DNA of 64,000 nucleotides from an uncultured Ignavibacteriaceae bacterium. GTDB lineage: Bacteria > Bacteroidota > Ignavibacteria > Ignavibacteriales > Ignavibacteriaceae. The notes beneath the pieces are model-generated. The model saw nothing but the letters and a program-made list of their open reading frames with translations, was not told the DNA's origin and did not search any database. The translations under genes and the position numbers were made by a program. Each line of letters opens with the position of its first letter. Position 1 is the first letter of the stretch. This document shows positions 23,825 to 51,089 of this stretch, one piece after another. The stretch is taken from the NCBI GenBank assembly GCA_964596145.1, contig CAZQSR010000001.1:2023-66022 (forward strand), written 5' to 3'.

Positions 23825-23826
23825 AA

Positions 23827-24644: not shown

Positions 24645-26839
24645 TATGTATTCTGTATTTCGTCATTCTTTTTATTATTATCTAAAAGCTGCAGTCCTTC
24701 TAATTGAATTCTTTTCTTTTCTCATTCGAGCATTTCTTCTTTGTAAGCACTATCAGTTCTGGCTTTAAACCAATCTATATTTTTTGAATGTTCTAATTTT
24801 TCTTTTTCAAGTTGTAATTTCTCATTATTCAATGATTGGATTTGTTGTTGTAATTTCTGAGTTTCCTGAGTAGCCTGTTTTAACTGTTGATTAAGTTGTT
24901 CCACTTGTTGTGTTAATTGACCAACTTGATTTGCTTCTTCTTTCTTAATCTTTAAAGCATTTAAAACATCATGTTTCATTTTAGTCAGTCCCGTTGCAGT
25001 TACTACTTCAAGTATTACTTCCGGGTCAACAATACCTCCTTTTATAAATTCAAAGGTTAATTGTTTCATAGTTTCCTGCTCTTTTAGAACATCTTGTGTA
25101 TCCGCAATATGAACATCATGATCAGTAAGTGTATAATATTCTGGAAGTGCTGTAAATGTTTTATTTAATTTATCACCTAACACTAATGTTCCAGTAATTC
25201 CATTTTTATATACAACTTTTGCAAGATTTAATAAATCTATCAACATTTCACGAGTCATTAAATCCATTGTGTGATAGTACTGTTTAGTTATAAAACTAGA
25301 TTGTCTAACTCCAACTTGTACATTAGTTACAGCATCTCGCTGTTCAATTCCTCCAAGTTTTTCTCTAAAAACTCCTGTTATTGTTGAACAAGTTTCTTCT
25401 ACTCTCTGAATTGCAATATCAATTGCTTGAATTGTTTGCATTTTAATTGTATCATCAAATCCTCCAAATGTTGTATTCATTGGTGGAAGTCCCTCTTGAG
25501 AACTATCGATCAGAGCAAGTCCTTGTTTCTTGTAAGCTTTCCACTTCATTAAACGTTCAGTTAAATCTGAACCTAAAAATTTAGGTAAATATGCTACATC
25601 AATTCAATCACCAACTGTTCCAGATTCTGCAATTACATTATCACGATAGAAGCATAATACATCAAATTTATCCTGTAAGTTTGCAGTAGCAAGCATTAAT
25701 GATATTGGATCTCCGTTTCTATCTGCATAAAAAATTCCATTTATTGATAAATTACACTCATTAGGTTCTGTGATACTTCTGAATACTTCTTCTGATTTAC
25801 CAAGTGGAATATATATTTGTCCTCCTATTCTTACTCCTTCATATCTGTTTACAACATACTCTTTTCCTTCTTTTTCAGTTTTTAATCACTCTACTTCATA
25901 AACAGGATACATTTTGAAGTATTTGTTAGTATTCCTTTCATATGGTAACAATGGAGTAACTTCAAATCCTCCAAGTATTCCATCAGATATTGTATTTCCA
26001 ACTACTGAGTCATAACTTCTCAAATAAGTAGTACTTGAACCATCAATACTAAAATCTTCAAGTGTATCAAGTACATCTAAATCTTCTTTTAAAATTAAAT
26101 GGCCATATCTTGCTAATATTTGATCTTTAGTCAGATATTCACGATAAACTGCTCTCATTGATTTCTTTAAATATGGTGAGGCTGGATTCCTATCAATAAA
26201 TGTATTAAGTGGATTTAATACTTGTAACTTCATACTTGTTTCAGACTCAGATTTAAAAGTCTTATAATAACAAGTTCCAGAAATAAGTAAATCCGTTAAT
26301 AATGTTTTTCTTTTTTCTTTGAAATCAATGTCTTGTGATTGGGTTATTCAATCTACAATATTTTGTGCTGCAATTTCATAATCTGATATAAAGTTTTGTT
26401 CCAATGAAGATTTTATTTCAAGAAGCTGTTTTTCTGTAATTGGATCATTAATCTCTTGTCCATATACAGTACTAAGAATTGTATTCTTTAATATTTTTTT
26501 AAGACCTGAGACAACTTCTGAATGAATTTTTAATTGTTTTTCTCTATATATATTTGATAAAGTTTCTTTATCTTTACAGGAGATTCTTGGAAGTAACGGT
26601 ACACCCAAATACTCCCCAATTAGAACATCTACATGTTTTCTTACTAGTGGGACAAATTCAACTGAAGTAGCTGTTCCTATTCCATAATTTTCTTCTAGGT
26701 GTCTAAATTGTTCTGGATCTCTTTTTCCGTGGTAGTAGTTATATGCTTTAATTAGTTGGGTTTTTTCATAAACAAGGTCATTAATTGCCCTATCAATGTT
26801 CACAATAATCTCAGCTTGTTCTTTATTTCATTTTTCCAT
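24644..26839 (-). CDS. portal protein (putative, 731 aa under code 4)
   Basis: Track fragments 26348..26803, 25886..26233 and 24722..25549 share one frame. The gaps contain only TGA, with 5 in-frame TGA in total. The ATG at 26837-26839 overlaps the upstream TAA, and TAA is at 24644-24646. Its size and its position next to the terminase fit a portal. Confidence 0.6.
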
Positions 26840-27123
26840 TATCTTTCACGTTCTTCTGTTAATCGGTTTACTCTATAAAAATAAACTCTAATATAATTCC
26901 GAATTCTAAATTCTTCTTTGATAAAATCCAAAAATTCTTCATCAGAGTTAGCATCACAAGCAATACTTGTAGGAGTCATGTAGCTAGGTAAGCCTATATT
27001 TAATCTATAAGATGTTCCATTTTGGGTAACATTTATAGATCCCTCGTATTCTGACTTATATAAATTCCTTATATAATCAAGAATCATCTGCACTAATTCT
27101 GGTCTTTCCATCCCTCTCTTCAT
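26839..27123 (-). CDS. hypothetical small protein (94 aa)
   Basis: Intact ORF ending in TAA, lying between terminase and portal. Confidence 0.6.
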   Translation of the reverse strand: MKRGMERPELVQMILDYIRNLYKSEYEGSINVTQNGTSYRLNIGLPSYMTPTSIACDANSDEEFLDFIKEEFRIRNYIRVYFYRVNRLTEERER

Positions 27124-29173
27124 TTGTTAACGGTATTACTCCGTAATGTTTATATCCTTTAGAATCTGTGTATCATCCAATATCTCTAAATTGATTACTT
27201 TTGGGTTCCCTTTCTGTTGGTTTTTTCATTGACAATTCTTCATCCCCAAGCTCAGCCATTCCCATTGCAGCTACAATGTCAAATTCTTTCTTTCTTTCAT
27301 CAGAATAATTTAACAACTGATCAACTACCTCTCTAAATGCAATCGTATGTGAATAATCTATACAAAAATCGTATATTAATTCCCTATAATGATTAATTAC
27401 TTTTGGAGGTGTTGGTGTGCCATACATGTTAGAGTTACCTTTAGATACATCAGGCATAGTTGCTCTTGGTCTTTTCATAAGTAGATTTAAATATTTATGA
27501 TCCCTGAAATAAGTTAAAATTGCAGTTCTAGTAGATTCTAAAACAGCTTTACATCCATAGTAAGTTAGTAGTTTTGCTGCGGTTTCGTAAGCTTCTCTAG
27601 GATCTTTAGGTCTATCTTTATATATCGCAACATACTTAGGTTCAGATAGTCCAATAACCCTTTTTTTAATTATAATACAAAATTCCGATACTTTCCCTGA
27701 TGAATCTTTTTGTGATGAATCCGCTGTTCCAATATCAATTGAGTCTATACCGCCTACATATAAATGTTGATACTCAGACCCATTCTCAGAAATCATTGGA
27801 TGTTCTAAAATTTTAATCTTTCCATTTTCATCATCGAATCTCCATTTAACTCTTCCAGTTCTTTTTTCAGTGTGTTTATCAATTTCCCATACTAAAGATC
27901 CTGTCTTGGGCAATTCTACTGTTTTATAAATATCAATAGCTGCCATTTGCTGAGCTAATTCTTCTCTTGGGAAAAACTCACTATCTTGCTGAATCAATGC
28001 TTCATCAATAGTAAAACAATACTCAGATTTATATTCTAGTAAATCTTTGGGATCTCCTACTTTTTTAGCCCTTTCTTTTAGATAGTATTCTTTTGCCTGT
28101 TCTGGATTACATCATCCTCTACTATCAACTAATTCATAGACTATTCTATACGCGGGTATAAATAATCCAGTTGTTACTCATCGCCCATCTTCGGTATAAT
28201 TATGCCTAACTGGTAAAATATTATATGCATCAGGATTCAGTGTTAGTTTTTTCAATCCTTCCATTGAGCTTGCTTTAGAGGAACCACCGGTACCAAATGC
28301 TAGTCGTCTACCAACTCGTTTTCCTCCTAACACTGTTATTAAAGCTTCTCCTTTAACCCACTTTTTTATTAAGAGATTATCTGCTCCAGCTTCTTCATAA
28401 ACTAGTAACTGAGTTCTATCTCCTCTTAATTTATCTGGATCATCACAAACTAATCCTTCAACTTCTGACATATGACCTGATTCTGCTCCATCTTTTGATT
28501 TTTTAGACGCTCTTTTATGAGTTTTTGTATTAATATTCATACGCACTCGCCTAAATGCCCCCTCAGTGTTATCGTTAAGTCAGTCTAATTGTAATCATAT
28601 TTTTGAAAGTGTAGGACCTAAATGCCCTGCGGAAAATGCTGAAATAACTGTGCGGAAATTAGGAATAGTAGTGTAAGGTCTAACTGTAAGTGATGCAGCA
28701 ATTTCCGACCAACCTATTCCACGAGATTTCAATGCAGACGTATCTTTCTTCAATAATTCGCACATTTCTGAATAATGAAAATACTCATATTGAAAAACAA
28801 AGAACTCTGGAAACCCATAATCCTGATTTATTGTTCCAGAATCAGAAGATTTTAAGTTGTAGAAATTCAAGAAGAAATAATTATCCCCAGTTAATCTGTA
28901 ACCATTGGATTCATATCCTTCATTACATCTTCTCTTTCTTTCAATCCATCAATCTCTATGAGTTTTAGAGCCAATAGGAATTGAAGTTGGACTGTATCTT
29001 CCAGTCCTTAATTTATTTATTGCGTCTTCTTTAAATCAGTTTGGGTTAAAATCTAATCCTTCTCTATCATTAATTGGCCGATATTTTGTTAAATAGTATG
29101 ACTTGGTATTATCAAAATACTCAATAGTATCATTAGGTCCAAAATCTCAACGTATTCCATCTATTATTTCCAT
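27056..29173 (-). CDS. terL: terminase large subunit (705 aa if TGA 27173 is read through; 666 aa if it terminates there)
   Basis: Fragments 28595..28870, 28178..28546 and 27173..27997 share one frame, with 8 in-frame TGA. ATG at 29171-29173 lies directly after the upstream TAG. Walker-B-like LLVYEEAG and a nuclease-domain GGIDSIDIGTADS motif are present. Confidence 0.75.
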
Positions 29174-29175
29174 GA

Positions 29176-29751
29176 CTAATCAAACATTCCGACTTCTGTA
29201 TTTCCTCTAATGGAACTTTCAGTATCTAGTCCTTTTTTAACTTGTAATTCTAACTCTCTTAGTGATGAAATTAAATCCTTACAACCCTTAATCTCTGCAA
29301 TTAAATCTTTACTTTTAAAAATTGGTTTTCCAGTTACCGTATCACGCTCTTGTAAATCTACATTATTTAAATAGAATATTTGTTTATCTACAGCAGACAT
29401 TGCAGCTTTTAGTAACTTTATATCAAGCGATGAATTTTGTATCTCATCATATTTTCTACAAGCTGCTTTAAATAAAGGGTCGTTAAATTCTTCATCTGTT
29501 AATTTAGAATCTTTTAAAGATTCTACATGACGTTCTTGCTCTGGGAATTGAAAATAAGGACTTTCTCAATCAAAGAATAAGTAAATATACTTTAATTCTC
29601 TAAAAGCCCTTTGTTTCTTTTTTCCAGTTTTATCGTCTTTAGTTTTATTTCGAGCATCTGCTAATAAATCTTCAAATTCTTTTATTAACAATATATTTTC
29701 CTGTTCTATTGAAACGCTACCACTTACATTATCATATACGAAAAATTTCAT
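29176..29751 (-). CDS. hypothetical protein (191 aa under code 4), candidate small terminase by position
   Basis: Track ORFs 29566..29751 and 29176..29400 are in the same frame, joined through TGA at 29566. It ends in TAG and lies immediately upstream of terL. Confidence 0.55.
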
Positions 29752-29761
29752 ATTTTATTTT

Positions 29762-30766
29762 TTATTTATTAAATCCTTGTTTAGGAACTAGTCCTAGAAC
29801 TGCTGGAACATTTACAGGCTTAGCTAAACTAGGATATTCAATTTTTACTTCCCCAGTATTTCTACCTTTTTGTTTTATTAATTTTAACAGTTTCAAATTA
29901 TCAGCAGCACTGAAATTATAACTACTCATTCCTAATTCTTTTGCCAATGCAGCTCTTGCTGTTTTATCAGAGGCTCTTCCCATTGAGTTGAGGTAGTCTA
30001 CAACTGAAATGTTAGGGTTTGATTGGACTGAAGTAGTAGTTTTAGCTGGCACCTTAGTTTCAGTTTCAGCTGGAGTTGTTACTGTTTCAGTTTCAGTTTT
30101 AGGTGCAATAGTTTGTACTGGTTTAGCTGTTACAACTGTTGTGGTTTTAGTAATTGGTTTAGCAGGCTCTCTCAACATTCCAGATTTCTTTTTGGCATCA
30201 TATCAATATTGAGTTTTTGGTACATAATTTAAATCTCCATATCTGAAAAAATCACTTAAAGTATTAACTAAATTAGTTATAGACGCTCTCTGAGATTCAG
30301 CATTTGATTTTTGTCTGTAATAGTCAGCAGCGGATTTAATTTGATAACCTTGTTGCAACTTCTGAATTTCACCGCCTTTTTCAAGTTTAGGTTTACATCC
30401 ACAAGCACAACTCTGTACCATTTTTCCACCCTTATCTTTTTTTGTAACTAACTCACATCCACAAGAGCATTTTTTAGACTTCATCTTTCCTCCCTTTTTA
30501 AGAAATTGTAAATAGTCTAACTTTCCTCCTTCTTTAAAATAAGGCATTTGTTCTTGCTCTTGTTCTAGAGCTGATAATTCTTGCTCTAATTTACCAGATT
30601 CCCCAAGATCTTGAATGTATTTCATAATTTCATTTTTATCCTGCACATTTTTATTCAAACTTGAGATAATCTCTTCCTCTGACCCATTGTAAATTTCGGG
30701 TTTAATTTCTTTAGCTTTTTTTACTACTAATTGTGTCAGTAGTTGTTGGAATTTTTCCTCCTCCAT
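29762..30766 (-). CDS. hypothetical protein (334 aa under code 4) with a Cys-rich middle and a Thr/Pro/Glu-rich linker
   Basis: Track ORFs 30203..30766 and 29762..30178 are in the same frame, joined through TGA at 30203. It ends in TAA. Confidence 0.65.
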
Positions 30767-30767
30767 T

Positions 30768-30989
30768 TTATATTTTCTTTAAATCTTTAGTATTGAATAC
30801 ACTCTCCTGTAATTCTCCTGTATTGGTAAATCATCGGCATAAGATTCCTTGAAAGAAATCTCCTTTAATACTTTCAGTTTTAATTGTTTTTGTAACTCTG
30901 CGAATTACATACATTGTTGGTTTATTTGGCAACTCTTGTCTAAGAGTCACCATATCACCAGGTAAAAAGAATACTTTATCTGTTTCCAT
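30768..30989 (-). CDS. small DUF2158/YodC-like protein (73 aa under code 4)
   Basis: ATG at 30987-30989. The sequence is GDMVTLRQELPNKPTMYV...GILCR-W-F, with the W encoded by TGA at 30831-30833. As I recall this family, the C-x-W-F Trp is conserved. The track misses this gene. Confidence 0.55.
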
Positions 30990-31097
30990 AATTCATTTAT
31001 TTTTATCGGTCAATTCAGAGGTAGTTTCTCTGATATTTTAAAAATTCGACCCATTCATTATTTACCATTTTTAATTCCCACTTTAAGGTGTGGATAC

Positions 31098-31619
31098 CTA
31101 TTTTTTAATACGATCTTTGAGATCGGTATTTAGAGCTGCTAAGATTGCATTTTCTTGAGTAAGAACATAACCTAGAGTCATAAATGGAAGAGGATATACG
31201 GTTCGTCCATCATAATATACATCATCTCCTGGTTTAAGGAATGTACATTTAGGACCTACTTCAATAACTTTCCCACATTTAATACCTTCTTTTAGTTGAT
31301 CCATTTCTCCAGAATCTGGATTTTTAAATGATCCATCATAATCAACAATAATACTTCCTTCTACAACTTTGCGATAAGGATTTCTTGGATAAGGACTAAT
31401 GATGACTTTATTTTCTAACGGCATCAATTCAAGAGTTTCAAGTTTTGCATTGATTTCTTCTTGTTTTGCTTTTTCTAACTCTAAAAGCATTTTTGACGCT
31501 TCTTCAATTTCTTTTTGATTTCTTAACTCCTCAAATTCCTTTTCAAGAGGTGCTCCTGGAACAATTAAATTCTTATTCATAAAATATTTACCACCTGCTT
31601 CTCCTAATGTCTTTGCCAT
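31098..31619 (-). CDS. GroES-like co-chaperonin with N-terminal coiled-coil extension (putative)
   Basis: LMPLENKVIIS, GKVIEVGPK, LKPGDDVYYD and ENAILAAL follow the Cpn10 motif order. Confidence 0.5.
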   Translation of the reverse strand: MAKTLGEAGGKYFMNKNLIVPGAPLEKEFEELRNQKEIEEASKMLLELEKAKQEEINAKLETLELMPLENKVIISPYPRNPYRKVVEGSIIVDYDGSFKNPDSGEMDQLKEGIKCGKVIEVGPKCTFLKPGDDVYYDGRTVYPLPFMTLGYVLTQENAILAALNTDLKDRIKK

Positions 31620-31635
31620 AATTTTTTCCCTTTCA

Positions 31636-31908
31636 TTACCACTTATTCAGTGGACATTTAACATTTAATACTTTCACTTTACTTTTTAATACACATCCAC
31701 ATCCGTTTTTAAATCCTATTTTAGGATATAGACTCGTTTCATCTGTTATTGGATTTAAATAAAGTTTTTTATTACAAACTAATCCAAAAATTGCATCTTC
31801 TTTTAACAATTTACATTTCTTGCAAATTTCTAATCTTTCTTTTGAGTAATCAGTATCTATATTTAATATGTTTTTAACAGTACCTTCCACTATTTGAGTA
31901 ATAGACAT
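31636..31908 (-). CDS. Cys-rich small protein (90 aa)
   Basis: Intact ORF ending in TAA, with CxxC-type pairs. Confidence 0.6.
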   Translation of the reverse strand: MSITQIVEGTVKNILNIDTDYSKERLEICKKCKLLKEDAIFGLVCNKKLYLNPITDETSLYPKIGFKNGCGCVLKSKVKVLNVKCPLNKW

Positions 31909-32210
31909 AGTATTAACCCTCCTACAAAACTTCCCCCTATATAATAAGGGATATTTTTAATTGTTTTATTTTGCTTAGTAATTTGCTCTTTCAAGTTATC
32001 GTTTAATTTTTGGATATCAGTATTCCAATTTTTTAATGTAACAATTGTTCCATCCTTTGCTTGAACGATTGATTTATAAGCGTCTACTTGTAATTTTAAA
32101 TCAGAATTAATTTGTTCGTTTAGAAGATTCAACTCTTTATGTGTCTCTAATTCTGCCATATATAATCGTAATCTAACAATTTCATCTTTTGTGAATGTCA
32201 TAACAATCAC
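31890..32210 (-). CDS. coiled-coil protein with C-terminal TM segment (106 aa)
   Basis: Intact ORF ending in TAG. C-terminal hydrophobic stretch IGGSFVGGLILCLLL. Confidence 0.6.
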   Translation of the reverse strand: MIVMTFTKDEIVRLRLYMAELETHKELNLLNEQINSDLKLQVDAYKSIVQAKDGTIVTLKNWNTDIQKLNDNLKEQITKQNKTIKNIPYYIGGSFVGGLILCLLLK

Positions 32211-32217
32211 AGTATCT

Positions 32218-32577
32218 TTATCTTGATCCTTTATAATCTTTCAATTCTCTGACGATTGACTCAAGCCACCTAGCGTGCTCAGCAGCAGAAGCATCACGAA
32301 TAACATTAACCTTTTCATTGTAATTATTAATTATAACTGTTTTTCTATTTTCTAGACTATCTACTTTGTAAGATAAACTATCTATTGTATATTTCGACTT
32401 CTCAACAACAGAGTTGAGTGAGTCAATTGTTTTAAGATATTTCCAAGAATGATCCTCAATTTCGGGAGTAGGTTTATTTATAAAGTAAATATACAACCAT
32501 GAACAGAAAACAATTGCAAACGTTGCAATAAGTAGACTAGAAATTAATCTTCCGTCTAGATTTTTTAAATTCTTCAT
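32218..32577 (-). CDS. N-terminal-TM coiled-coil protein (119 aa)
   Basis: Intact ORF ending in TAA. TM segment LISSLLIATFAIVFCSWLYIYFI. Confidence 0.6.
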   Translation of the reverse strand: MKNLKNLDGRLISSLLIATFAIVFCSWLYIYFINKPTPEIEDHSWKYLKTIDSLNSVVEKSKYTIDSLSYKVDSLENRKTVIINNYNEKVNVIRDASAAEHARWLESIVRELKDYKGSR

Positions 32578-33472
32578 ATTCTATTTCTTTTTTATAATGT
32601 GTAAGCATTCTTTCAACATCTTGTTTTCTATATTCACACTCATATTCTGTTACATTTCCTTCATGATCATGGTGAATCAATTGAAGTAGTTTAATATTAA
32701 ACCTGGAGTCTATTTTCTGAATCATCCATGCATAAGTAGATAACTGCAGAGTATAATGCCAAAAATTAGAATCATCTATATGATTTAAAGGATATTTTAA
32801 TTTTTGTGATTTTTTTAATTTTCTATCATAGAAAGACTTTAAGTCAATTTTTTTGTTAGTTTTGAAATCTAGAATATATACATCCCAACCATCAATAATA
32901 ACTAAGTCAGCTTGTCCGGCAAGTCTAAGTTTTCCATCATCAGATATTCTAGAAAGCAATAACTCAGGATATACTCCTTGACCCGATTCTATTTTATTTG
33001 TAGTAGTTGTTTTAAAATTTCCTCCTAAACCTAATCGTTGTATTTCTGGACTTTTTCCTGCTAATGCAAGGAGCTCTTGTTCTCTATGGATTGCTGTTCC
33101 TCTAATACAAGAAGTTTCACGTTTTTCAGTCCATTCAGCAAGTATTTCGTTTTTTCTTTCTAAAAAATCTTTGTCTGAAATTTTGAATAATTCTAGATAA
33201 TCTGTAGTAAATTGTTTAGTATCTAATAGTTTGGATTTAACTTTTAAAAAATCATCTGGGCTTATCAATGATTCTAGGGTCTTATAAGAAGCCCAAAACT
33301 CTTCATCAAAGGTTGTATATCTGTGTATAAGTGTAGTTACTGATATACAATGTTGTTTTGTATCTTTAACCCAATATTTATGCAGCTCATCATTGTAGCT
33401 TACAAGGTCATTTTCTTTATCAATTTTTAGATTTTCATAATCTATTTGTTTCATGGTCATGTTCATTTTCAT
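32537..33472 (-). CDS. PD-(D/E)XK (RecB/Cas4-like) nuclease
   Basis: GQADLVIIDG...YILDFKT...LQLSTYA matches the D...(D/E)xK...QxxxY arrangement. Confidence 0.6.
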   Translation of the reverse strand: MKMNMTMKQIDYENLKIDKENDLVSYNDELHKYWVKDTKQHCISVTTLIHRYTTFDEEFWASYKTLESLISPDDFLKVKSKLLDTKQFTTDYLELFKISDKDFLERKNEILAEWTEKRETSCIRGTAIHREQELLALAGKSPEIQRLGLGGNFKTTTTNKIESGQGVYPELLLSRISDDGKLRLAGQADLVIIDGWDVYILDFKTNKKIDLKSFYDRKLKKSQKLKYPLNHIDDSNFWHYTLQLSTYAWMIQKIDSRFNIKLLQLIHHDHEGNVTEYECEYRKQDVERMLTHYKKEIEYEEFKKSRRKINF

Positions 33473-34188
33473 TTATCATTTTTCTCCATCTCTTTTTGCA
33501 GTTCTTCAAAATTTATCATAGAACTTATAAGTTGAGCTGATTTAGCTACTTCAGTTAGTGATGCTTTTTTATCAATAGTTTTCTCAATTTTAGTGATAAC
33601 AATAAATCCAATAACCTCATCAACTCCTTGTAAAGCGTAAAACAACGCAGATTTTATGGACATAGGTTTAAAAAGTTCATATACTATAGGATATTGAATT
33701 TTAATACTTTCTAAATCCTCAACATAGATAGATCCCTCATTTTCTAGTCTATGGATAAATCCAGCTAATAATGATAAATTTATTTTTTGAAATCTATGAG
33801 ATATAGGAGTTAATTCTGGTGTATTGACTTCAGCTACAGCTGAGGTGTATAAAAAGGGAAGACCAACTAAATTTTTAGTCCCATTGGAATACTCAAAAAC
33901 CAACGCTCTGTCAGAATTAGTATCTTCTGCTAATTCTTGTAAAATTGTTTTTACATTTTGAGAAAATTGCTTTCTAATACTATTACCAATTTTATGTGCA
34001 TTTTTATCTTGTTCTAGTTTTGCTGCGATCCTTTTATCTAAAGCTTTTCCAGAAGAACTATTTGTAAAAATAATATAACCTACCAAAGCTAAAGGTAGTG
34101 TACTTGATAACATAAATAGAAGTAGTACCACTACTCCAAATTCTTTTAAAAGGTAAAATAAAAATTCTACTAATACTTCCATTAACAT
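33469..34188 (-). CDS. membrane-anchored hypothetical protein (239 aa)
   Basis: Intact ORF with an N-terminal TM segment. It ends in TGA in an ATGA overlap with the next gene. Confidence 0.65.
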   Translation of the reverse strand: MLMEVLVEFLFYLLKEFGVVVLLLFMLSSTLPLALVGYIIFTNSSSGKALDKRIAAKLEQDKNAHKIGNSIRKQFSQNVKTILQELAEDTNSDRALVFEYSNGTKNLVGLPFLYTSAVAEVNTPELTPISHRFQKINLSLLAGFIHRLENEGSIYVEDLESIKIQYPIVYELFKPMSIKSALFYALQGVDEVIGFIVITKIEKTIDKKASLTEVAKSAQLISSMINFEELQKEMEKNDK

Positions 34189-34225
34189 CTAATTTTTAAA
34201 ATTATTATAATTTATTTTCTATTTG

Positions 34226-34233
34226 CAAAGATA
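34226..34233 (-). promoter_or_regulatory. -7 promoter box TATCTTTG
   Basis: Plus-strand CAAAGATA, about 40 nt upstream of the ATG at 34188, in an AT-rich intergenic region. Confidence 0.5.
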
Positions 34234-34357: not shown

Positions 34358-35041
34358 CTAGATTCCATTATTTCTTAATACTTCAAGAATTTTTGGAATA
34401 ATGGGATTCCTTACACAATCCTCATCAGTAAATTCTATTGTTCCTACAAATGGAGAATCTTTAAACATCTCAATAATGGGATCCAAACAAGAATTTTGTT
34501 TTTTCTTTAAATCAATTTGTTCAGAATCCCCAAGTAAAATATACTTAGAATCATCCCCAATACGAGTCATCATTGTTTTAAAAGTATGCATATCAACATT
34601 TTGTAATTCATCAAAAATAACTATCGCATTGTCAATTGAAATACCACGAACAAATGCTAAAGGTAATACCTGAACCAATCCTTTATCAAGTAGAGCTTTA
34701 GCAGCTCCTTCTCCGCAGATCTTGTCAATATTCCAAGTAAATGACATCATGAATGGCTCCATTTTTTGATCAACTCCTCCTTTTATAAAACCAATTTCTT
34801 GATCTGGTAATGTAGTTACTGATTTAACAATAATAACTTTTTTATACACTTCCCCAAGCATAGAAAGAGCAGTTGCTAAACTTATATAAGTTTTACCACT
34901 TCCCGGAGTTCCTTTAGCTATGACAACTTCATTTCTTTTTATTAGTTTCACAAATTCTGCCTGCTTTTGATTTCTAGGTTGAAAATTCCTTACTAATGTA
35001 GACTGTTTTTCGGGTAGTCTTTCTTTTACTTTTTTTCCCAT
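34358..35041 (-). CDS. phoH: PhoH-like ATPase
   Basis: Walker A GTPGSGKTY. FVRGISIDNAIVIFDELQN matches the PhoH signature. Confidence 0.85.
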   Translation of the reverse strand: MGKKVKERLPEKQSTLVRNFQPRNQKQAEFVKLIKRNEVVIAKGTPGSGKTYISLATALSMLGEVYKKVIIVKSVTTLPDQEIGFIKGGVDQKMEPFMMSFTWNIDKICGEGAAKALLDKGLVQVLPLAFVRGISIDNAIVIFDELQNVDMHTFKTMMTRIGDDSKYILLGDSEQIDLKKKQNSCLDPIIEMFKDSPFVGTIEFTDEDCVRNPIIPKILEVLRNNGI

Positions 35042-35176
35042 ATTAATTATTAATTAGTTAATAAAAAAGCCCACTAGAGTTTCTAATGAGCTGTTGTATT
35101 TGGTTTCATGTGAGATTCTTGTATTGCTTAAAATATATTGTATTTTCTATTTGTCACATACCGCATACTAATTCTT

Positions 35177-35356
35177 TTACCATTTAGGTTGTAATTTTCC
35201 GTAGTTTTTAACTACATCACCCATTAATTCAGGTGCATATTCTTTTAATGTTTCTTTTATCAATTTCTTGGATGGATTTCCAAGTTGTAACTGAATTGCT
35301 CCGTATGTCCATCCATCTTTTCTTAATTCTATAATTCTTCTTTGTAAATCTGTCAT
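35177..35356 (-). CDS. small HTH protein (59 aa)
   Basis: ATG at 35354-35356 and TAA at 35177-35179. IIELRKDGWTYGAIQLQLG resembles the HTH in the adjacent HNH protein. Below the track cut-off. Confidence 0.45.
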   Translation of the reverse strand: MTDLQRRIIELRKDGWTYGAIQLQLGNPSKKLIKETLKEYAPELMGDVVKNYGKLQPKW

Positions 35357-35358
35357 AA

Positions 35359-36234
35359 TTATTTCTTTTCTACAATATATCCGAAATTCTCTAAAACTTC
35401 CTTACATAAATTTAAATATTCATCTAAATTCATAGATGATTTTGAAGCATTTGCAATTGGAGTAGTTATCCCCATATTTTCTAGTTCATTAGTGCCGCCA
35501 TTTGATACAGATTGAATGTGATCAAGACAATACGGATCTTTTGTTATATCAATAGGTCTGCCTGTTAAATAACATCTAGTTTGTAGTCCTCCTAAATGTT
35601 CTATCGCTTCTTTGTATGTATAATTTTTTTCTACTTTCATTTTGTTTCTATTTTTAAAGAATGATACTGATGCAGTTATTTTTCTGTCATGATTCTCTGT
35701 ATCCTGTTTACCTATACCAAATTCTCTAAGTTTAAAATTTGTCAATCTTTTTGATAATAAATATAAATAGGATTTTTCATTTTTTGATTTCTCTATTTTC
35801 TTCTTATGTGTAGTTTTAGTAGTTTTAGAACAATGGTAGGATACAGTAGATTTAGCACACCCTAAAATTATAGAAATATCTTTCATTGACTTTCCTAATC
35901 TTCTAAGCTCTATTATTTGTTTTCCTAATTCAGAAGTATTTTCATCAAGGTGCTCTAAATCTTTCAAATTACTTTCTAACTTTCTACAATTTGCTCCACA
36001 ATATCCATCATTTTCTACATGATATATTTTTCCACAAACTTTGCATATAAAATTCTTTGTTTCTTCAGGCTTAGATTTATTTTTTCTATCTAAAATTAGA
36101 TTTAACTTTTGACATTTAGTCCTGACAGTTCTTTCTGTCACATTATATATAAGTGCAATATCTTTATGCCAAAGTCCACTATTAAAATAGTTTTCTAATT
36201 CTTGTTTTGTTATTTGTTTTCATTCTTCTTTCAT
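35359..36234 (-). CDS. HNH endonuclease with N-terminal HTH/zinc-ribbon regions (291 aa under code 4)
   Basis: C-terminal CLDHIQSVSNGGTNELENMGITTPIANASK is an HNH motif. The only ATG start (36232-36234) requires reading TGA at 36220-36222 as sense. The track starts at an internal GTG. Confidence 0.7.
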
Positions 36235-36261: not shown

Positions 36262-36334
36262 CTCCCTTGCCCCGACTCGAACAGAGACTTACGAATTTTG
36301 AAGATTCGCGTGCTAACCATTACACTACAAGGGA
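36262..36334 (-). tRNA. tRNA with anticodon UCA (reads UGA); Trp-like opal decoder
   Basis: Hand-folded cloverleaf, 73 nt. Acceptor UCCCUUG/CAAGGGA (7 bp). D arm GUGU-AAUGGUUA-GCAC. Anticodon arm CGAAU-CUUCAAA-AUUCG, with U33 and UCA at 34-36. Variable loop UAAGU. T arm CUCUG-UUCGAGU-CGGGG. Discriminator G73, no encoded CCA. Confidence 0.9.
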
Positions 36335-36369: not shown

Positions 36370-36588
36370 CTAATCTCTATGCTCAAAATTATATATATCA
36401 TCTAATACTGCTTGTAAATCTACTTTATCAATTGATCCACAGTAATATAATCCTCGGCCGTTTTCAGCACCATTGTATGCTTCAATCATCTCAGCATCAA
36501 ATTTAATTGTCCAATCTCCTTTTATCCAAGTGTTTGGAAGGGATGATGCTATAAATCCATTTTCAATCAACATTTTTTCCATAATCAT
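36370..36588 (-). CDS. hypothetical small protein (72 aa)
   Basis: Intact ORF ending in TAG. It is the first gene after the -7 box at 36608 and lies just upstream of the tRNA. Confidence 0.6.
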   Translation of the reverse strand: MIMEKMLIENGFIASSLPNTWIKGDWTIKFDAEMIEAYNGAENGRGLYYCGSIDKVDLQAVLDDIYNFEHRD

Positions 36589-36607
36589 TTTCGTTTTTAA
36601 TCATATG

Positions 36608-36615
36608 CAAAGATA
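36608..36615 (-). promoter_or_regulatory. -7 promoter box TATCTTTG (operon: 36588 gene, tRNA-UCA, HNH ...)
   Basis: Plus-strand CAAAGATA, about 20 nt upstream of the ATG at 36588. Confidence 0.5.
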
Positions 36616-42222: not shown

Positions 42223-42864
42223 ATGAGTAAAAATTCAAAACCGGCAACAGCACCGGTAACAATGGAAAAGATTACGGCCTCAACAGTGGAGGCTATCACA
42301 AAGTTAAGGACTGATATTTTTCAGTCTGCAAAAAAGGTCGCTAATAGTGCAACAAGTTTTATCGGTTTGCCAAAAAGCGGAACGTTCAGTACTATCGGAG
42401 TAATGATTTATACCAAAAATTCCCAGGGCGGAATTAATCCTGAAATACCAGCTTTTTTAATGGATAGTAGCCACGTTCCAAACAAAGATATTTATCTTTA
42501 CAGTTTGGGACTGACCACTGTTGAGGGCGGTTTTATTTCAGAAAGCGCACTAACAGCGCAAATGTTAAAACCTGAACTCACTACTATCAAAAGTGGAGAA
42601 AATTCTGGAAATTTCACCCTAAAATCTGAACGAGTTACTAATTGGGATAACGAAACTTTAGGCTATTCAGCAAACGAAAGGTTGAAAAATCTGGAGGGCA
42701 AAAGTTTTGAAACTGAACCCGTAACAGACGCACGAGTTTGGCAACAAAAGGTTTTGCAAAATTGGGCAAAACAAGCGGTTGTAACACAAAATACGCCTGA
42801 AAAGTTACAAACGTTATTGGATAAAACAGAGACTAAAAACTTATATAAGTTTAGTTTAGTTTAG
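42223..42864 (+). CDS. hypothetical protein (213 aa), in the G+C-richer island
   Basis: Intact ORF ending in TAG and followed by the hairpin AGAGCAATC/GATTGCTCT plus a T-run. Confidence 0.7.
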   Translation: MSKNSKPATAPVTMEKITASTVEAITKLRTDIFQSAKKVANSATSFIGLPKSGTFSTIGVMIYTKNSQGGINPEIPAFLMDSSHVPNKDIYLYSLGLTTVEGGFISESALTAQMLKPELTTIKSGENSGNFTLKSERVTNWDNETLGYSANERLKNLEGKSFETEPVTDARVWQQKVLQNWAKQAVVTQNTPEKLQTLLDKTETKNLYKFSLV

Positions 42865-42940
42865 TAACCACAAAAAAGAGCAATCATTTCGATTGCTCTT
42901 TTTTTTCTCTTTTCTTCAATAAGTATATCCACTAATCCAC

Positions 42941-43156
42941 ATGTCCACAACTCCAGATAACCCAGAAAGTATAATCACCCAAGTCGGTTACTACCAAACC
43001 GACAACAAATTCATCACTCTTGATGGAGAAATCATCTCCTGTATAACTTACAGACCAATTAATCAGGCTCTAACACCTGAGAAATTAGTTGCTGTAAATA
43101 TGAGATGGAGTGTTGAATTAAATCAATGGGTGATTTTTCAGTATGTAGAATTATAG
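42941..43156 (+). CDS. hypothetical small protein (71 aa)
   Basis: Intact ORF ending in TAG. Confidence 0.55.
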   Translation: MSTTPDNPESIITQVGYYQTDNKFITLDGEIISCITYRPINQALTPEKLVAVNMRWSVELNQWVIFQYVEL

Positions 43157-43255
43157 ACCTACTCGATTCATTATGACTCGTAGTTTATTTTCTTTTTATT
43201 GGGTGGAATATCCCCGTAATGAGTGAGTAGGTTTATTTTATTATTAGTATTGAAC

Positions 43256-43451
43256 TAAAGTTTAGTATTATTGAGTGAGTTTTGGGTTTTAGTTTGGAGA
43301 TTTTAATTTGTGTTTGAATGAAGGTGAGGGATTGAGTCACCACCACCAACCACACTCCACAAAACTATCACCAACAACAACCCTAAAAAAATCACTAAAA
43401 ACATCATCAATTATAACCAAATCCTCAACAACACAAAATTTATAAATTATT
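43256..43451. other. strand-composition switch element: 81-nt C-free (G/T-rich) run abutting a 115-nt G-free (A/C-rich) run
   Basis: There is no C in 43256-43336 and no G in 43337-43451, read directly. The arms share partially complementary words (AGTTTGGAGATTTT vs CTCCACAAAACT). Confidence 0.7.
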
Positions 43452-43517
43452 GCACCTATCATGCAATGACTCAACTAGCGAGAGTATAAAATTGGTTTCC
43501 GAAGAGAGCTAGTCGAA

Positions 43518-44060
43518 ATGTATCAACATCAAACCCAAAAAATAAAAAAAATGAACACAAATTTAAAAATGGTCAATGTACCATCAGATTCACTCATTGT
43601 TTTACACAGTGAAAAAATTACAAGGAAAGCAAATGTTAAGATGTTCCAATCAGGAACTATTTCTCTTAACGGCTTTGCTATCACTCAATTGTTGGAAGGA
43701 TTTAGTCTTTTAGTTCAATCCTATTCATCAATATCAACATTGAAAGAGCACACAAATCTGTCTCTTAAAATTGCCAAAGGAATTGCAACTGCAGTACAGC
43801 TCGGCGGTAACGCAGAGTATTTAGTTTCATATTCAGAAGTACGAATTTTAAAAGAATGGTTGGAAGCTCGCATGCGTCATTGTGAGCAGGAACGAGATAA
43901 AAGAGTAACTTGGCCTCATGATCGAGATGCTCTGAAATTTAATCCTGATACCTATATCGGGCAGAAACTTTTACTTCTTGACCTAAGAGAACTTCTTCTT
44001 GGAGAAGTAATTGCTACTGAAACTGATCATTGGGATGGAGATAATTCAGCTCAACAATAA
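43518..44060 (+). CDS. hypothetical protein (180 aa)
   Basis: Intact ORF ending in TAA. Confidence 0.65.
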   Translation: MYQHQTQKIKKMNTNLKMVNVPSDSLIVLHSEKITRKANVKMFQSGTISLNGFAITQLLEGFSLLVQSYSSISTLKEHTNLSLKIAKGIATAVQLGGNAEYLVSYSEVRILKEWLEARMRHCEQERDKRVTWPHDRDALKFNPDTYIGQKLLLLDLRELLLGEVIATETDHWDGDNSAQQ

Positions 44061-44118
44061 TTCTAAATCGCTGGCAGACCGATAATAGTCTGCTATAATA
44101 TTTAAAAAAACTATAATA

Positions 44119-44541
44119 ATGAAATCGATATTAAAACAATTTCAGTATACTTCCAATTTATGCACAGTGTACAAAAATCCAGTAGGATTTACTTATTTCT
44201 ACTGTGGCTATGGTGGAGGGACTCCATGCTTTTATATAGAAAAGAGCTGGAGTGCAAGGCTAGGCAAGATATCTAGTGAGGACATTAAAAATTCCTCTAT
44301 AGTTCATGGAACTATTGATGAATTTAAACAAGGCAAGCCAATTGTGGTAAGAAGCCCAATTGTGGGCTTTACAAGAGATATCTTAAAAGAAGATATAACT
44401 ATCGAAGGAGACGTCTACAAAAAAGGGACTAAAATATTTTACTCCGTAGAACATAACGGAGAATTCATATTTGACGGTAAGTTAGCTAAGGTTATCCGGG
44501 TTACGGAAAACTATAATTATGTTATAAAGCTGTTGAATTAG
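44119..44541 (+). CDS. hypothetical protein (140 aa)
   Basis: Intact ORF ending in TAG. Confidence 0.65.
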   Translation: MKSILKQFQYTSNLCTVYKNPVGFTYFYCGYGGGTPCFYIEKSWSARLGKISSEDIKNSSIVHGTIDEFKQGKPIVVRSPIVGFTRDILKEDITIEGDVYKKGTKIFYSVEHNGEFIFDGKLAKVIRVTENYNYVIKLLN

Positions 44542-44857
44542 TCTTAATCCTTGTTTTACTGGAATTTACCTTCTGAACAAAAGATACATGCAAATTAGCC
44601 TTTAATATACTATAACGACACGGCAAGATAGGTGGCGTATCTGGGGGTGCGAAGACAGAGTAATTAACTGTCGTAACATCAAGGGAAATAGCCTGCTGGT
44701 AATCGATGCGAAAGAGTTCAAGGACGACCACATAAGAGTTACTCGTCATCTCTTAAAAAATGTAAGTGGTTACGTATCGATTGCAGTCGTTATTTGATAG
44801 AATGATAAATAAAAACTAAGCGGTGCTGGCTGCTCTCGTGTGGAGCTGGTGAAAAGT

Positions 44858-45001
44858 ATGACAAAATTCTTATCACCTGAAGAGTTTAATGCTCTTCCAG
44901 AAAACCAGAAGGAATTGTACACATACATTCCTTCAGATTTTAATAGTTTTCATGACTACGATCATGGGAATTATTATGTTCTCAGTTCGGCTTTGATATA
45001 A
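44858..45001 (+). CDS. possible small protein (47 aa)
   Basis: ATG...TAA ORF below the track cut-off, with protein-like composition (MTKFLSPEEFNALPENQKELYTYIP...). Confidence 0.35.
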   Translation: MTKFLSPEEFNALPENQKELYTYIPSDFNSFHDYDHGNYYVLSSALI

Positions 45002-45208
45002 ATTCGTTTTTACAACATAAGCTCTATCCAGATTTGGGTATAGGATTACGAAGGTGCACACGTAATAATATCCTTGTTTGCTGGTTGGATTCCAGCGCAA
45101 AGCACTAATTTCAAATACAGCAACATCAGTTTCAAGTCCCGACTGTGCTTGATCGGTTGGCATATGAACATATGCTGTATTTATTTAATTATCGTAAAAA
45201 TGTACACA

Positions 45209-45514
45209 ATGAAACAATTCATTAACTGTACACCTCACGCCATTGTACTTAACGATGGTAGAGTATTCGAACCTTCTGGTTCAGTAGCTCGAGTGAGTAC
45301 TTCATTTACTGACTTTGCAGATGATGTTTGCATGGTTAAGTATGGAGAACTTACAGGAGTTCCTGAACGTCAGAAAGACACAATGTACATCGTATCTTCG
45401 ATGGTACTTGCGGCTTCTGATAGAGGGGATTTAGTAGCACCAGCTACAGGACATCCTGACTGTGTCAGAAATGACAAAGGTCAGATTGTTTCTGTTCCTG
45501 GCTTTGTATACTAA
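45209..45514 (+). CDS. conserved-looking small protein (101 aa)
   Basis: MKQFINCTPHAIVLNDG...ARVS...VSSMVLAAS...GQIVSVPGFVY. The upstream 45 aa of the track ORF look non-coding. Confidence 0.6.
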   Translation: MKQFINCTPHAIVLNDGRVFEPSGSVARVSTSFTDFADDVCMVKYGELTGVPERQKDTMYIVSSMVLAASDRGDLVAPATGHPDCVRNDKGQIVSVPGFVY

Positions 45515-47497
45515 TACTCTGTGAGGTCCAGAATATAATGTGAATAATAGTAACATTATCTGGTGAAGGGATTGCAACCTTTATTACTCAATTGCTTTAA
45601 AATATTAAATCTACTCAATAGGGTCGAAATTAATCATGCGATTTAACCAGTTATGTTGGCATGGCTAGAGTAGTGTTTTAGTATAAAAATCTTTGATGCT
45701 GCGAATAATCTTCGTTCATAACAGCACAAATAGTCCGGCAGGTCGAAAGCCCTGTGACGAAGATCAAAGATTTTTTTCAATAATTATATCAATAGCATAG
45801 GTAATCCAATGCACACGAAAACTATTAAATTCTCCGACTATTTAAAAATAGGAAATAACACCTTAGACGTGTGGAAGCCAGTGGTAAGATTAATAGTGAC
45901 TTAACCGTGTATAAACTATCAAATACTGAACTTGAAAGGTAAACATAAGAACTGACTCGGAAAGTAGTAAGTAATTGATAGTTTTAAAAAACTTAATAAC
46001 TTCACAAGTCATTGAGTGCACCAGTTTCTAAAATCCGATTCTAACTAGTAGAGTAATAATTGGTTTAGTTTTAGGTGTAAAATGCAAAAGCTGTCAGTGA
46101 GTTAAACTGAATAGTTATACTTAAAGTAAGAATAGGTATAATGACTTAATGTTCTTGCAATCTGATTAATCCAGATTATCTAACATCTTTATAAATAGTT
46201 GCAAATGTTTATAAAGCTCTGGAAAATATGAATACTGAAAGTTATTCGACTTTGTGAGCAACCAGATGTCTCACGTGTCGATAACACCATCATATTGAGA
46301 TTAATTCATATGATGTTTTAAAAGACTTCCTTCAACAATTTTACCTTGAAGTTGTAGGATTAAATGAAAATACGGTAGTCCGTTAGGTAAGCTTAAAATC
46401 CAAATAAAAGTCTAAACTCACCACCAATGAGCAAAGATTTGAAAATGGTAGATATTGACAATTATGGTGATTGTTAGTATTGAGTATTAAATACAATGCT
46501 GTATCTTAATAAAATATCTCTGGCTCGGAGAATAGAGAATGATAATATGATTCACAAAGTATTATCATTCTCTATAATTAAATTATGTAGGTTTTGGTTG
46601 ATACAAATCTCTCAAAACAAATTACTCCGGCGAATAATGCCGCCTGCCGGAATTTAAAAATTAGAGAATAATCCCGAAGTTAAGCACAGATAGCGATATG
46701 TGTGGAAGATAGGGACAGCAACTGAAGTAAGGATTGATAGGAAGCTGAACGAACGAATCCTAGTGCGATGGTCAAAGACATTGCATGTTACAGTAGATTA
46801 AAGAGGACGCTCAATAATAGACTAGTAATTTATACAATAGACATTGATTTAATGATGCCAAGTAACTGTTCCAACAGTTCATCATTAAAATGGAAATCAA
46901 TTATATTGCTTTGCACACTAAAACTTGTATGGTGTGAATATTGTAATGTAGCCAAGGACTGTTCTAAGCCAGTGTAAATACAGACGACAATAAGACCAAC
47001 AACTTATACATTCAAACTAAAATGTATAGTTAAATCGATCCTAGAACTAGAAGTCTTTCTAGGCTGTTGGAATAGATAGAGTTGGAAATAAGTCCAGTGA
47101 TAACTACTAAGATCGTATCACTTTCCTCCTAATTAGTTCTTATTAGTTGGTGTAACTATTCAGTTTATAATTTGCTGCTTGCAAATCCTGGGACTCAGGG
47201 AATGATTAACATATTATGTTATGATTAAAGCGGGGCTAAATTACGTAATATATGGAGAGTATGCCATATTATTCAAACTACGTAAAAGTTTGTTGGAATA
47301 CCTGAAACCTTAGTTTGATTCTCTGTAAGGTGGAGGAAAAGAGAATAAGTAGTCATAAAATGTCTAAAGTTGGAAGATATATGATGAAGAGATAAAAATT
47401 GCTAGTAATAAAATTTTAATACACAAGCCATAAGCTAGCTGGTTAACTTCTGTGTATTATTTTAATATGAATTTTAAACTCAAAAAATAAAAAAATT
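45515..47497 (+). ncRNA. ORF-free, hairpin-dense 2-kb region: candidate large structured ncRNA(s); strand assumed from flanking genes
   Basis: Stops are frequent in all six frames, and the only track ORF is a weak 69-aa one. There are many long perfect stems, for example AGAGAATGATAATA/TATTATCATTCTCT (around 46533-46575), AAATCTTTGAT/ATCAAAGATTT enclosing nested stems (around 45690-45780) and AATGATG..ACTGTT/AACAGT..CATCATT (around 46851-46890). A terminator-like stem plus T-run lies at around 47425-47470. Confidence 0.45.
45591..45610 (+). repeat. 20-nt box ATTGCTTTAAAATATTAAAT (copy 2 of 2)
   Basis: 19/20 identical to 41981-42000. Confidence 0.8.
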
Positions 47498-47875
47498 ATG
47501 ATGGAAGTTCCAACTTGGAATCAAATTATTACTCTAATAGTAATATTTGGTTCAGCTGTAATAGCAAGGCAGTTGATTATCTCAAAAAAATCTGTTTCTT
47601 TAATAGATAAAGTAATAATTAAAATATTATTACACTATCTTGAAAACACAGATTATTGGGAAACTTATTATTGTACTGGGTTATGTGATTTTGTGGGTGT
47701 TTTGAACAAAGAAACAAAATGGGCTAAGTTTCCTGGTATTTGTAAAATAATGCTTAACTTTATTAATAGTAATTTTCCAAAAAACTCATATGGTGTTTTT
47801 TGGTTCGAACCAACGGATAAACAAGTTAGAATTGATTACTTAAAGAAATTATTGAATGAAGAAGTTAATCGATGA
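47498..47875 (+). CDS. hypothetical membrane-anchored protein (125 aa)
   Basis: Intact ORF with an N-terminal hydrophobic segment. Confidence 0.65.
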   Translation: MMEVPTWNQIITLIVIFGSAVIARQLIISKKSVSLIDKVIIKILLHYLENTDYWETYYCTGLCDFVGVLNKETKWAKFPGICKIMLNFINSNFPKNSYGVFWFEPTDKQVRIDYLKKLLNEEVNR

Positions 47876-48050
47876 TACAGAAGTCAATTCAAGAGGATAT
47901 TATTATCTGTTGGATTGGAATGAACAGGATAATTGGAATACAATTTTAATTTTATTTAATACGGCTAAGTTACATGAGCTAACTATTAGTCAGTATAAAG
48001 AGCTTTTTAAAATTGCAACAGAATCTGATTATAATGTATTAGACAAATAA
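47856..48050 (+). CDS. hypothetical small protein (64 aa)
   Basis: Intact ORF ending in TAA. Confidence 0.5.
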   Translation: MKKLIDDTEVNSRGYYYLLDWNEQDNWNTILILFNTAKLHELTISQYKELFKIATESDYNVLDK

Positions 48051-48096
48051 CATATTGTGAAATAGAAATATTTTGTTGTTCTTAAATAAAAATCAA

Positions 48097-48678: not shown

Positions 48679-48727
48679 ACTTTTAAAATTAAAAAAGAAT
48701 TTTAACTGACATTAAAACAAAATCATT

Positions 48728-49435: not shown

Positions 49436-49456
49436 ACCCAAAACAAAAATAAAAAA

Positions 49457-49702: not shown

Positions 49703-49703
49703 T

Positions 49704-51070: not shown

Positions 51071-51089
51071 ATAACAAAACAAATAAAAA

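Follow-up and report, generated by a model that had tools for sequence, protein, structure and literature searches.

Reassignment of the stop codon TGA to tryptophan (Trp; genetic code 4) has been described in crAss-like phages, mostly in late genes and together with suppressor tRNAs (Yutin et al., 2021; PMC7886860). For recoded phages in general, the account of Borges et al. (2021; bioRxiv 10.1101/2021.08.26.457843) sets out a gating model and a reliance on the host tryptophanyl-tRNA synthetase (TrpRS), and it cites the tryptophanylation of Escherichia coli TGA suppressors. The locus considered here is a tRNA gene with the anticodon UCA, at 36262..36334 on the minus strand of a 64,000-nucleotide stretch of contig CAZQSR010000001.1; this whole stretch is referred to as the window. 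A TGA-decoding phage tRNA is already documented in the crAss-like group, and the window is a further example of it, not a new phenomenon. A preliminary description of the window had been drawn up from its sequence and a list of its open reading frames (ORFs) only.

Within what the accounts of recoded crAss-like phages report (Yutin et al., 2021; Borges et al., 2021), the window shares with those phages a Crassvirales-type genome of low G+C content (30.8% here), stop codons inside TerL, portal and late genes with the remainder compatible with the standard code, and a tRNA with an anticodon that pairs with the reassigned stop, the insertion of Trp being deduced from alignments. Unlike in the published recoded crAss-like phages, the window tRNA lies in a conserved cassette with an ORF of about 70 amino acids (aa) at the head of the recoded arm, and no description of such a cassette was found in the accessible text of Yutin et al. 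and Borges et al. A related arrangement is the "code change module" of the Jade phages, in which a suppressor tRNA, TrpRS and release factor 1 (RF1) are encoded upstream of the lysis cassette, accessory RF1 and TrpRS being presented as optional among published recoded phages (Borges et al., 2021; bioRxiv 10.1101/2021.08.26.457843). As in the Jade module, as far as it is set out there, the decoder of the window is encoded in the standard code just upstream of the genes that depend on it, and gating along the same lines is proposed. Unlike in Jade, neither TrpRS nor RF1 was found in the 64 kb of the window, the tRNA being accompanied instead by a 72-aa protein and a 59-aa ORF with a weak helix-turn-helix (HTH) match; the host would be a member of the Bacteroidota, not of the Firmicutes. 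Theta ribozymes, which resemble that of hepatitis delta virus (HDV), adjoin suppressor tRNAs in recoded phages (Kienbeck et al., 2024; PMC10879173); unlike in those cases, an Rfam scan detected no ribozyme beside the window tRNA.

The gene at 36262..36334 very probably encodes a phage UGA (opal) suppressor that translates TGA-as-Trp genes in a Bacteroidota host reading TGA as stop. This explanation is favoured because the UCA tRNA is structurally sound, its locus is conserved with compensatory changes, 72 TGA codons lie downstream on the same strand at Trp or aromatic alignment columns, and the other arm of the genome follows the standard code. Natural tRNA-Trp(UCA) occurs in Mycoplasma and in mitochondria, and E. 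coli opal suppressors have been derived from tRNA-Trp. Compared with the Mycoplasma and mitochondrial tRNAs, that of the window would serve a virus, and only transiently, in a cell with the standard code where release factor 2 (RF2) competes for the codon, and its acceptor pair is U1-A72, whereas tRNA-Trp(UCA) and the E. coli opal suppressors have A1-U72.

Across the whole window ARAGORN called a single tRNA, at 36261-36334 (-) with anticodon tca, the "SeC" label that it attached being based on the anticodon only. The Rfam tRNA model RF00005 matched 36334->36262 with 56.5 bits (gathering score 29, E 1.7e-9) and aligned over model positions 1-71 of 71, all stem pairs being standard. The 73-nt molecule comprises an acceptor stem UCCCUUG/CAAGGGA, U8 and A9, a D stem GUGU/GCAC closed by the D loop AAUGGUUA with G18 and G19, an anticodon stem CGAAU/AUUCG with the loop C32 U33 U34 C35 A36 A37 A38, a 5-nt variable loop UAAGU, a T stem CUCUG/CGGGG with the T loop UUCGAGU, and the discriminator G73 at 36262; CCA is not encoded, the bases after G73 being CAA. 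Stems of 7, 4, 5 and 5 bp, a 7-nt anticodon loop and the conserved bases U8, A14, G18G19, U33, purine 37, G53-C61, U54U55C56 and A58 make it a type I tRNA. The preliminary description had reported a complete 73-nt minus-strand cloverleaf with UCA, U33, a GG-bearing D loop, the T loop UUCGAGU and G73; each of these elements is found on reading the sequence, and ARAGORN and Rfam agree in accepting the fold, with anticodon tca.

The codons that such a tRNA would serve are confined to one arm of the genome. Under code 11, the stop-to-stop ORFs of 100 aa or more have a summed length of 50.0 kb, which rises to 69.5 kb when TGA is treated as sense. By ORF counts and by comparison with the alignment columns of relatives, the recoded arm (6823..34188, -) contains 72 in-frame TGA against 57 TGG codons. 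On this strand, TGA occurs nine times in TerL (27056-29173), five times in the portal gene (24644-26839), twice in the endolysin gene (13173-13760), 20 and 13 times in the genes of two large tail or fibre proteins (8605-12915 and 18279-23369, respectively) and four times in a gene without TGG (33442-34188). Outside the head block, the Trp codons of the late arm are mostly TGA. The block at 42223..62867 (+), which encodes NAMPT, NMNAT-Nudix, NADAR, SPFH and other proteins, is compatible with the standard code and holds about 96 TGG codons; on the plus strand between 42 and 64 kb, the read-through ORF ends no more than 1-19 codons after each TGA. By this placement the plus-strand TGA codons are real stops, and since TGA occurs on that strand only at ORF ends, the host would read it as stop and the phage would use two dialects. 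A host using code 4 was considered and rejected because the plus-strand genes terminate at TGA.

The amino acid inserted at these codons can be approached through TerL, which was aligned codon by codon with 34 relatives. Every one of these relatives carries 6-15 TGA in the gene. At the nine TGA columns of the window, the 34 relatives mostly have TGA or TGG, with phenylalanine (F) or tyrosine (Y) in most of the others, and the TGG columns of the window likewise carry TGA in relatives. TerL of MT835470, the nearest relative with the standard code, is free of TGA, and its residues at the nine positions are W, W, F, W, Y, Y, V, Y and F. Because the TGA columns interchange with TGG, F and Y, and because MT835470 presents W, F or Y (with one V) at them, TGA most likely specifies tryptophan in the recoded genes.

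Minus-strand ORFs of the window match known phage families, namely portal (phrog_6547), TerL (phrog_6681), endolysin, PhoH, RNase H, exonuclease and HNH endonuclease, and the major capsid protein (MCP) matches Pfam Crass_capsid. The best annotated TerL matches are from Crassvirales, with 26-47% identity to Crassvirales terminases and nothing closer in 50,697 phage records, and a megablast of 24-40 kb against the same records gave no match. Given the Crassvirales hallmarks, a TerL at most 47% identical and the absence of a megablast match, the window is assigned to a crAss-like phage, of which it is a part, in an uncharacterised lineage. Related contigs in IMG/VR number 61, with TerL 58-85% identical and lengths in some cases of 138-213 kb; exact-protein look-ups of three window genes returned only contigs of at most 17.9 kb, without new context.

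Among these 61 relatives, 19 carry a UCA tRNA that is encoded on the same strand as TerL and precedes it by about 5.6-10 kb, in a constant order of an ORF of about 70 aa, the tRNA, a 59-aa ORF and PhoH, and then on to TerL. Ten distinct type I copies could be compared: all 210 stem cells pair, both sides have changed in 15 of the 21 pairs, and the covariation score is 0.85 against 0.23 for shuffles and at most 0.22 for slid partners, while U31-CUUCAAA-A39 and G73 are invariant. Stem covariation together with an invariant loop and G73 indicates purifying selection on what, from these comparisons, would be a working tRNA.

The small gene upstream of the tRNA, a 72-aa ORF at 36370..36588 (-) with no TGA and two TGG, has a homolog, detected with a profile hidden Markov model, immediately 5' of the UCA tRNA in all relatives with coverage, whatever the tRNA scaffold. 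AlphaFold models its product with a pLDDT of 89 as a helix, four strands and a helix; the fold matches in the PDB are not significant (best E 0.1, TMq 0.47), the protein matched neither a Pfam nor a PHROG family, and among 5.8 billion proteins there are five close homologs, all unannotated. On the other side of the tRNA, the 59-aa ORF at 35177..35356 (-), also devoid of TGA, was found by tblastn in 15 loci and lies directly 3' of the tRNA where the HNH gene described below is absent; its HTH-like match scores 18.2 bits against a cut-off of 43. The PhoH-like ATPase gene that follows (34358..35041, -; phrog_170, E 9e-66) likewise contains no TGA.

In the window, as the preliminary description had stated, the tRNA lies on the minus strand between the small gene at 36370-36588 and the gene of an HNH endonuclease with HTH domains (35359..36234, -; phrog_6050, E 2.2e-16), whose start codon is 27 nt away. 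That description had further stated that the only ATG start of this gene requires a TGA to be read at codon 5. The ATG at 36234, directly after an in-frame TAA and 5 nt past AGGAGG, does place a TGA at codon 5 (36220-36222), but a GTG start at 36141 is possible under the standard code, so that the ATG is not the sole candidate start. Starting at GTG 36141 would cut into an N-terminal HTH, itself weakly matched (residues 13-38, the match at residues 105-138 being above the Pfam cut-off), and would remove part of the PHROG alignment, which for phrog_2308 begins at residue 9; read-through from ATG 36234 is therefore judged the better gene model. Among the relatives, an HNH homolog was found in contig L020 only, and there in part. 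Because it occurs only in the window and in L020, the HNH gene is, by its distribution, a mobile, lineage-specific insertion between the tRNA and the 59-aa ORF.

The sequence TATCTTTG occurs at 36608-36615 (-), and the longer box TATCTTTGCA at 36606..36615 (-), 18 nt upstream of the 72-aa ORF, is by motif count a candidate Bacteroidota -7-type promoter element. The window has four copies of TATCTTTGCA where 0.40 would be expected, and each lies between genes in the orientation of the gene that follows; besides that of the tRNA unit, one at 34224..34233 (-) heads the TGA-containing block that includes the gene with four TGA at 33442-34188, one at 8495-8504 precedes a gene with nine TGA, and one lies at 37682-37691. 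The enrichment is specific to the longer box, the generic TAnnTTTG being found 94 times in the window against 103 expected, and sigma-70 consensus promoters are no commoner than chance would give (58 found, 56 expected). Of the 14 relatives checked, 13 also have a TAnnTTTG box ahead of the tRNA unit, mostly 170-360 nt from the tRNA and ending in TTTG(T/C)A. Both the excess of TATCTTTGCA and the recurrence of TAnnTTTG uphold, as a motif, the promoter box that the preliminary description had placed upstream of the small operon.

A terminator consensus scan of the 33-43 kb region returned 12 terminator-like sites against 3.6 expected. One of them, a hairpin followed by a T run at 35068..35092 (-), is a predicted terminator that would close the unit of 72-aa ORF, tRNA, HNH gene and 59-aa ORF, and another terminator-like hairpin lies 3' of the PhoH-like gene at 34329-34352 (-). 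The likely transcription unit would consist of the promoter, the 72-aa ORF, the tRNA, the HNH gene, the 59-aa ORF and the terminator. In phi14:2, a model crAss-like phage, the host RNA polymerase transcribes middle and late genes and the virion RNA polymerase the early ones (bioRxiv 10.1101/2020.03.07.982082); by analogy, the host-type box would fit a middle or late expression class.

In the mechanism envisaged, the tRNA would be co-transcribed with the 72-aa ORF from the host-type TAnnTTTG promoter, excised by RNase P together with 3'-processing enzymes, completed with CCA by a host enzyme, and charged by the host TrpRS through C35, A36 and G73. Its U34 would read UGA, and probably UGG too, in competition with RF2. 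Before enough charged tRNA is present, TGA-bearing late mRNAs would give rise to truncated products only, and this shortage-driven truncation would act as the gating of late and lysis genes that the literature proposes.

Several observations weigh against the suppressor explanation, concerning the distribution of TGA, the accessory genes, the timing of expression and the body of the tRNA. The use of TGA is patchy within the late arm, so that the equation of late with recoded is only approximate. TGA is absent from the head-gene block (1123-6805, -; 11 TGG), which includes the MCP gene (4373-5803, -), from the exonuclease gene (32537-33472, -; six TGG) and from a G+C-rich fibre-like gene of 1446 aa with a BppL_N motif (13907-18247, -; eight TGG). 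The most abundant proteins, those of the head genes, appear to avoid the suppressed codon, and avoidance of TGA in these most highly expressed genes fits incomplete suppression. The fibre-like gene has a G+C content of 43% against about 30% in its neighbours, and the genes flanking it hold 13-20 TGA; it was probably acquired recently from a source that uses the standard code. Among the proteins scanned in the 64 kb of the window there was neither RF1 nor TrpRS, nor the product of any other code-change gene. Temporal gating is not evident from the sequence, an identical box preceding the tRNA unit and the TGA-rich late units. The preliminary description had held that the decoder would be made before the TGA-rich late genes are translated; because the box also heads TGA-rich units, and because the host RNA polymerase of phi14:2 transcribes middle and late genes, the motif does not establish this timing.

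The tRNA body is the remaining adverse point, and it bears directly on which amino acid is attached. By its anticodon arm, U31 CU-UCA-AA A39, the window tRNA equals bacterial tRNA-Trp except for U34 in place of C34, position 34 being the only difference between its loop CUUCAAA and the bacterial CUCCAAA. The two also have in common G73, the bacterial Trp discriminator, which is invariant in all phage copies and in 14 sampled cellular tRNA-Trp. The identity set of TrpRS, known from work in E. coli and Bacillus subtilis, consists of G73, the anticodon C34 C35 A36 and A1-U72. The window tRNA retains G73, C35 and A36; its position 34 is U, which gives the UGA reading, and its first pair is U1-A72, not A1-U72. 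Pair 1-72 is A-U in three of the syntenic relatives, G-C or G-U in four and C-G in two, and the sampled cellular tRNA-Trp are also variable there.

Covariance models with the anticodon masked were built from Trp and glutamine (Gln) tRNA sets. They score the window copy at 60.1 (Trp) and 60.2 (Gln) bits, a difference of -0.1, whereas the Trp model is preferred by 2.5 to 8.3 bits in the nine syntenic relatives; in controls, Trp minus Gln was +8.6 to +14.6 bits for known tRNA-Trp and +0.6 to +1.4 bits for known tRNA-Gln. The mean identity of the window tRNA to Trp tRNAs is 0.35, and that to Gln tRNAs 0.38. By these comparisons the tRNA family is Trp-like, and the window copy would be a member that has drifted to an ambiguous body. 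The preliminary reading of a tRNA-Trp with C34 changed to U is accordingly sound for the anticodon arm, G73 and the syntenic family, and does not extend to U1-A72 or to a body that scores equally as Gln.

These features of the body are what would recommend the insertion of glutamine, with glutaminyl-tRNA synthetase (GlnRS) charging the tRNA through its U1-A72, G73 acceptor end and its D arm. A scan of the window D arm across 185,579 genomes returned 80 cellular loci, of which 56 are tRNA-Gln (CUG or UUG), 15 tRNA-Trp and four tRNA-His; U1-A72, a hallmark of tRNA-Gln, is invariant in the Gln tRNAs of this sample, and the masked Gln model rates the window copy as highly as the Trp model does. 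The E. coli GlnRS identity set comprises U1-A72, G73, G10, U35, G36, G2-C71 and G3-C70. By this set, the window tRNA possesses U1-A72, G73 and G10 and lacks the other four elements, having C35, A36, C2-G71 and C3-G70 instead. With these four missing and the codon columns opposed to it, since TGA aligns with TGG, F and Y and never with glutamine, and with the syntenic orthologs preferring the Trp model, charging with glutamine is very improbable. Still less credence, indeed almost none, attaches to the idea that the gene is a selenocysteine (Sec) tRNA and its TGA codons Sec codons, even though ARAGORN prints "tRNA-SeC" and the UCA tRNAs of some relatives at the same locus resemble the tRNA-Sec model. 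The traits of RF01852, an acceptor stem of 8-9 bp, a D stem of 6 bp and a long variable arm, are lacking in the window tRNA, which with its 7-bp acceptor stem, 4-bp D stem, ordinary 7/5 fold and 5-nt variable loop matches RF00005 and not RF01852; the 72 TGA codons are spread over many genes on Trp or aromatic columns, and selA, selB and selD were not found among the proteins scanned.

Other explanations leave the decoding capacity of the tRNA in place and question its role. HNH genes often accompany tRNA clusters, and the tRNA could be a passenger, either cargo of the adjoining HNH homing endonuclease or a decaying gene, with read-through brought about by a host suppressor, another tRNA or inactivation of RF2. 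That other routes exist follows from surveys in which no more than about 35% of TGA-recoded phages were seen to have a suppressor tRNA, as reported by Borges et al. (bioRxiv 10.1101/2021.08.26.457843). Yet the HNH gene is limited to the window and L020, whereas the UCA tRNA occupies the site in 19 of 61 loci, and a gene whose stems covary with 100% pairing and whose anticodon loop and G73 are invariant is most unlikely to be a passenger. The benefit could instead be mainly offensive, as Yutin et al. proposed for crAss-like phages (PMC7886860): the suppressor would drive read-through of host UGA stops and damage host or defence proteins, and the phage would tolerate its own TGA codons. The TAA or TAG that follows 1-19 codons after the TGA of standard-code phage genes would limit self-harm under such a strategy. 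The concentration of TGA in certain late genes and its absence from the other arm are left unexplained, however, and the offensive role, compatible with the suppressor explanation and not exclusive of it, is unlikely to be the principal one.

A more elaborate interpretation, doubtful but less so than these rivals, is that an environmental clade carries a fixed "code-switch cassette" of promoter, the protein of about 70 aa, the tRNA and the small HTH-like ORF. The protein would then be a switch cofactor, acting for example on RF2, TrpRS or the tRNA, and the tRNA scaffold would have been exchanged repeatedly, among Trp-like forms, the form with a Gln-like acceptor (that of the window), a type II form with a long arm, a Sec-like form with a 9-bp acceptor and an anticodon-split form, with TGA kept on Trp columns in every case. 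If so, either the anticodon and G73 suffice for TrpRS on very different scaffolds, or some phages insert another residue.

At the syntenic position, the UCA tRNA is non-canonical in L038 (3272-3367; also in L036), L049 (3863-3962; also in L042), L061 (1307-1401) and L016 (1008-1100). The tRNA-Sec model is the best for the copies of L038 (96 nt, 38.0 bits) and L049 (100 nt, 29.8 bits), both below the gathering score of 47. The 95-nt tRNA of L061 was called by ARAGORN only; by eye its sequence is like the L038 form, and it is probably Sec-like. L016 has a 93-nt, long-arm type II UCA tRNA with A1-U72. The tRNAs of L016, L038 and L049 end in G73, and the TerL TGA codons of these contigs still fall on TGG, F or Y columns. 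In L022 (3092-3783), a UCA tRNA missed by ARAGORN is split inside the anticodon by an insert of about 620 nt, the 5' half ending in ...GUGGUCUU at about 3124 and the 3' half beginning with CAAAACCAC at about 3741. The insert contains an ORF (3149-3630) with a PD-(D/E)xK-like motif, as judged by eye; searched against Rfam at E <= 1, it matched no group I intron. A weak match to an HDV-like ribozyme (3961-4041; RF02682, 21.7 bits, E 0.062) adjoins the 3' end of the UCA tRNA in L049; it recalls the theta ribozymes described beside phage suppressor tRNAs (PMC10879173) and has no counterpart in the window.

Further elements were noted on the standard-code side of the window. A transfer-messenger RNA (tmRNA) gene at 63132-63566 (+), with a G3-U70 acceptor stem, matches RF00023 (66.5 bits, E 1e-23) and was missed by ARAGORN; its frame GAC AAG ... 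CTA GCT GCA TAA would give the tag DKKVISFARPAAVQLAA, ending in LAA. The same element is carried by Logan contig L187, and a search with the pattern of its 3' end returned 19 viral contigs whose likeness to the window is limited to the conserved 25-30 nt, with no gene in common. That the tmRNA marks a boundary between prophage and host was considered and rejected, as composition and gene content are unchanged across it and unannotated ORFs without family matches continue beyond it. Sub-threshold matches to a twister-P1 ribozyme (46940-46991, +; 43.8 bits, gathering score 67.2, E 2e-6 for the whole window) and to a RAGATH-1 hammerhead (43468-43535, +; 42.5 bits, gathering score 56.3, E 0.001) sit in an ORF-poor, slightly G+C-richer stretch at 43-47 kb. 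Three tRNA-like remnants (53223-53289, 55206-55266 and 55384-55459, +) occupy two gaps between genes of the standard-code arm; one forms an almost complete cloverleaf with the loop CUUACAA and a degenerate T loop (27.7 bits with a custom tRNA model), the other two consist of T arm and acceptor stem only, and neither ARAGORN nor Rfam called any of them. A cluster related to nicotinamide adenine dinucleotide (NAD) salvage and ADP-ribose spans 56833-62867 (+), with genes for NADAR (56833-57297, +), NMNAT-Nudix (58042-58938, +), NAMPT (60289-61695, +) and an SPFH/Band 7 protein (62094-62867, +).

For annotation, the finding means that TGA has to be treated as sense on one arm of this genome and not on the other; ordinary gene callers would otherwise break up the TerL, portal and tail genes. 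For the biology of recoded phages, the window adds a well-documented case of TGA-to-Trp recoding outside the gut crAss-like phages studied so far, an example in which the decoder operon, the recoded arm and the arm in the standard code are clearly delimited, and the small ORF and the varied UCA scaffolds offer handles on tRNA charging and on competition with RF2 in a standard-code cell.

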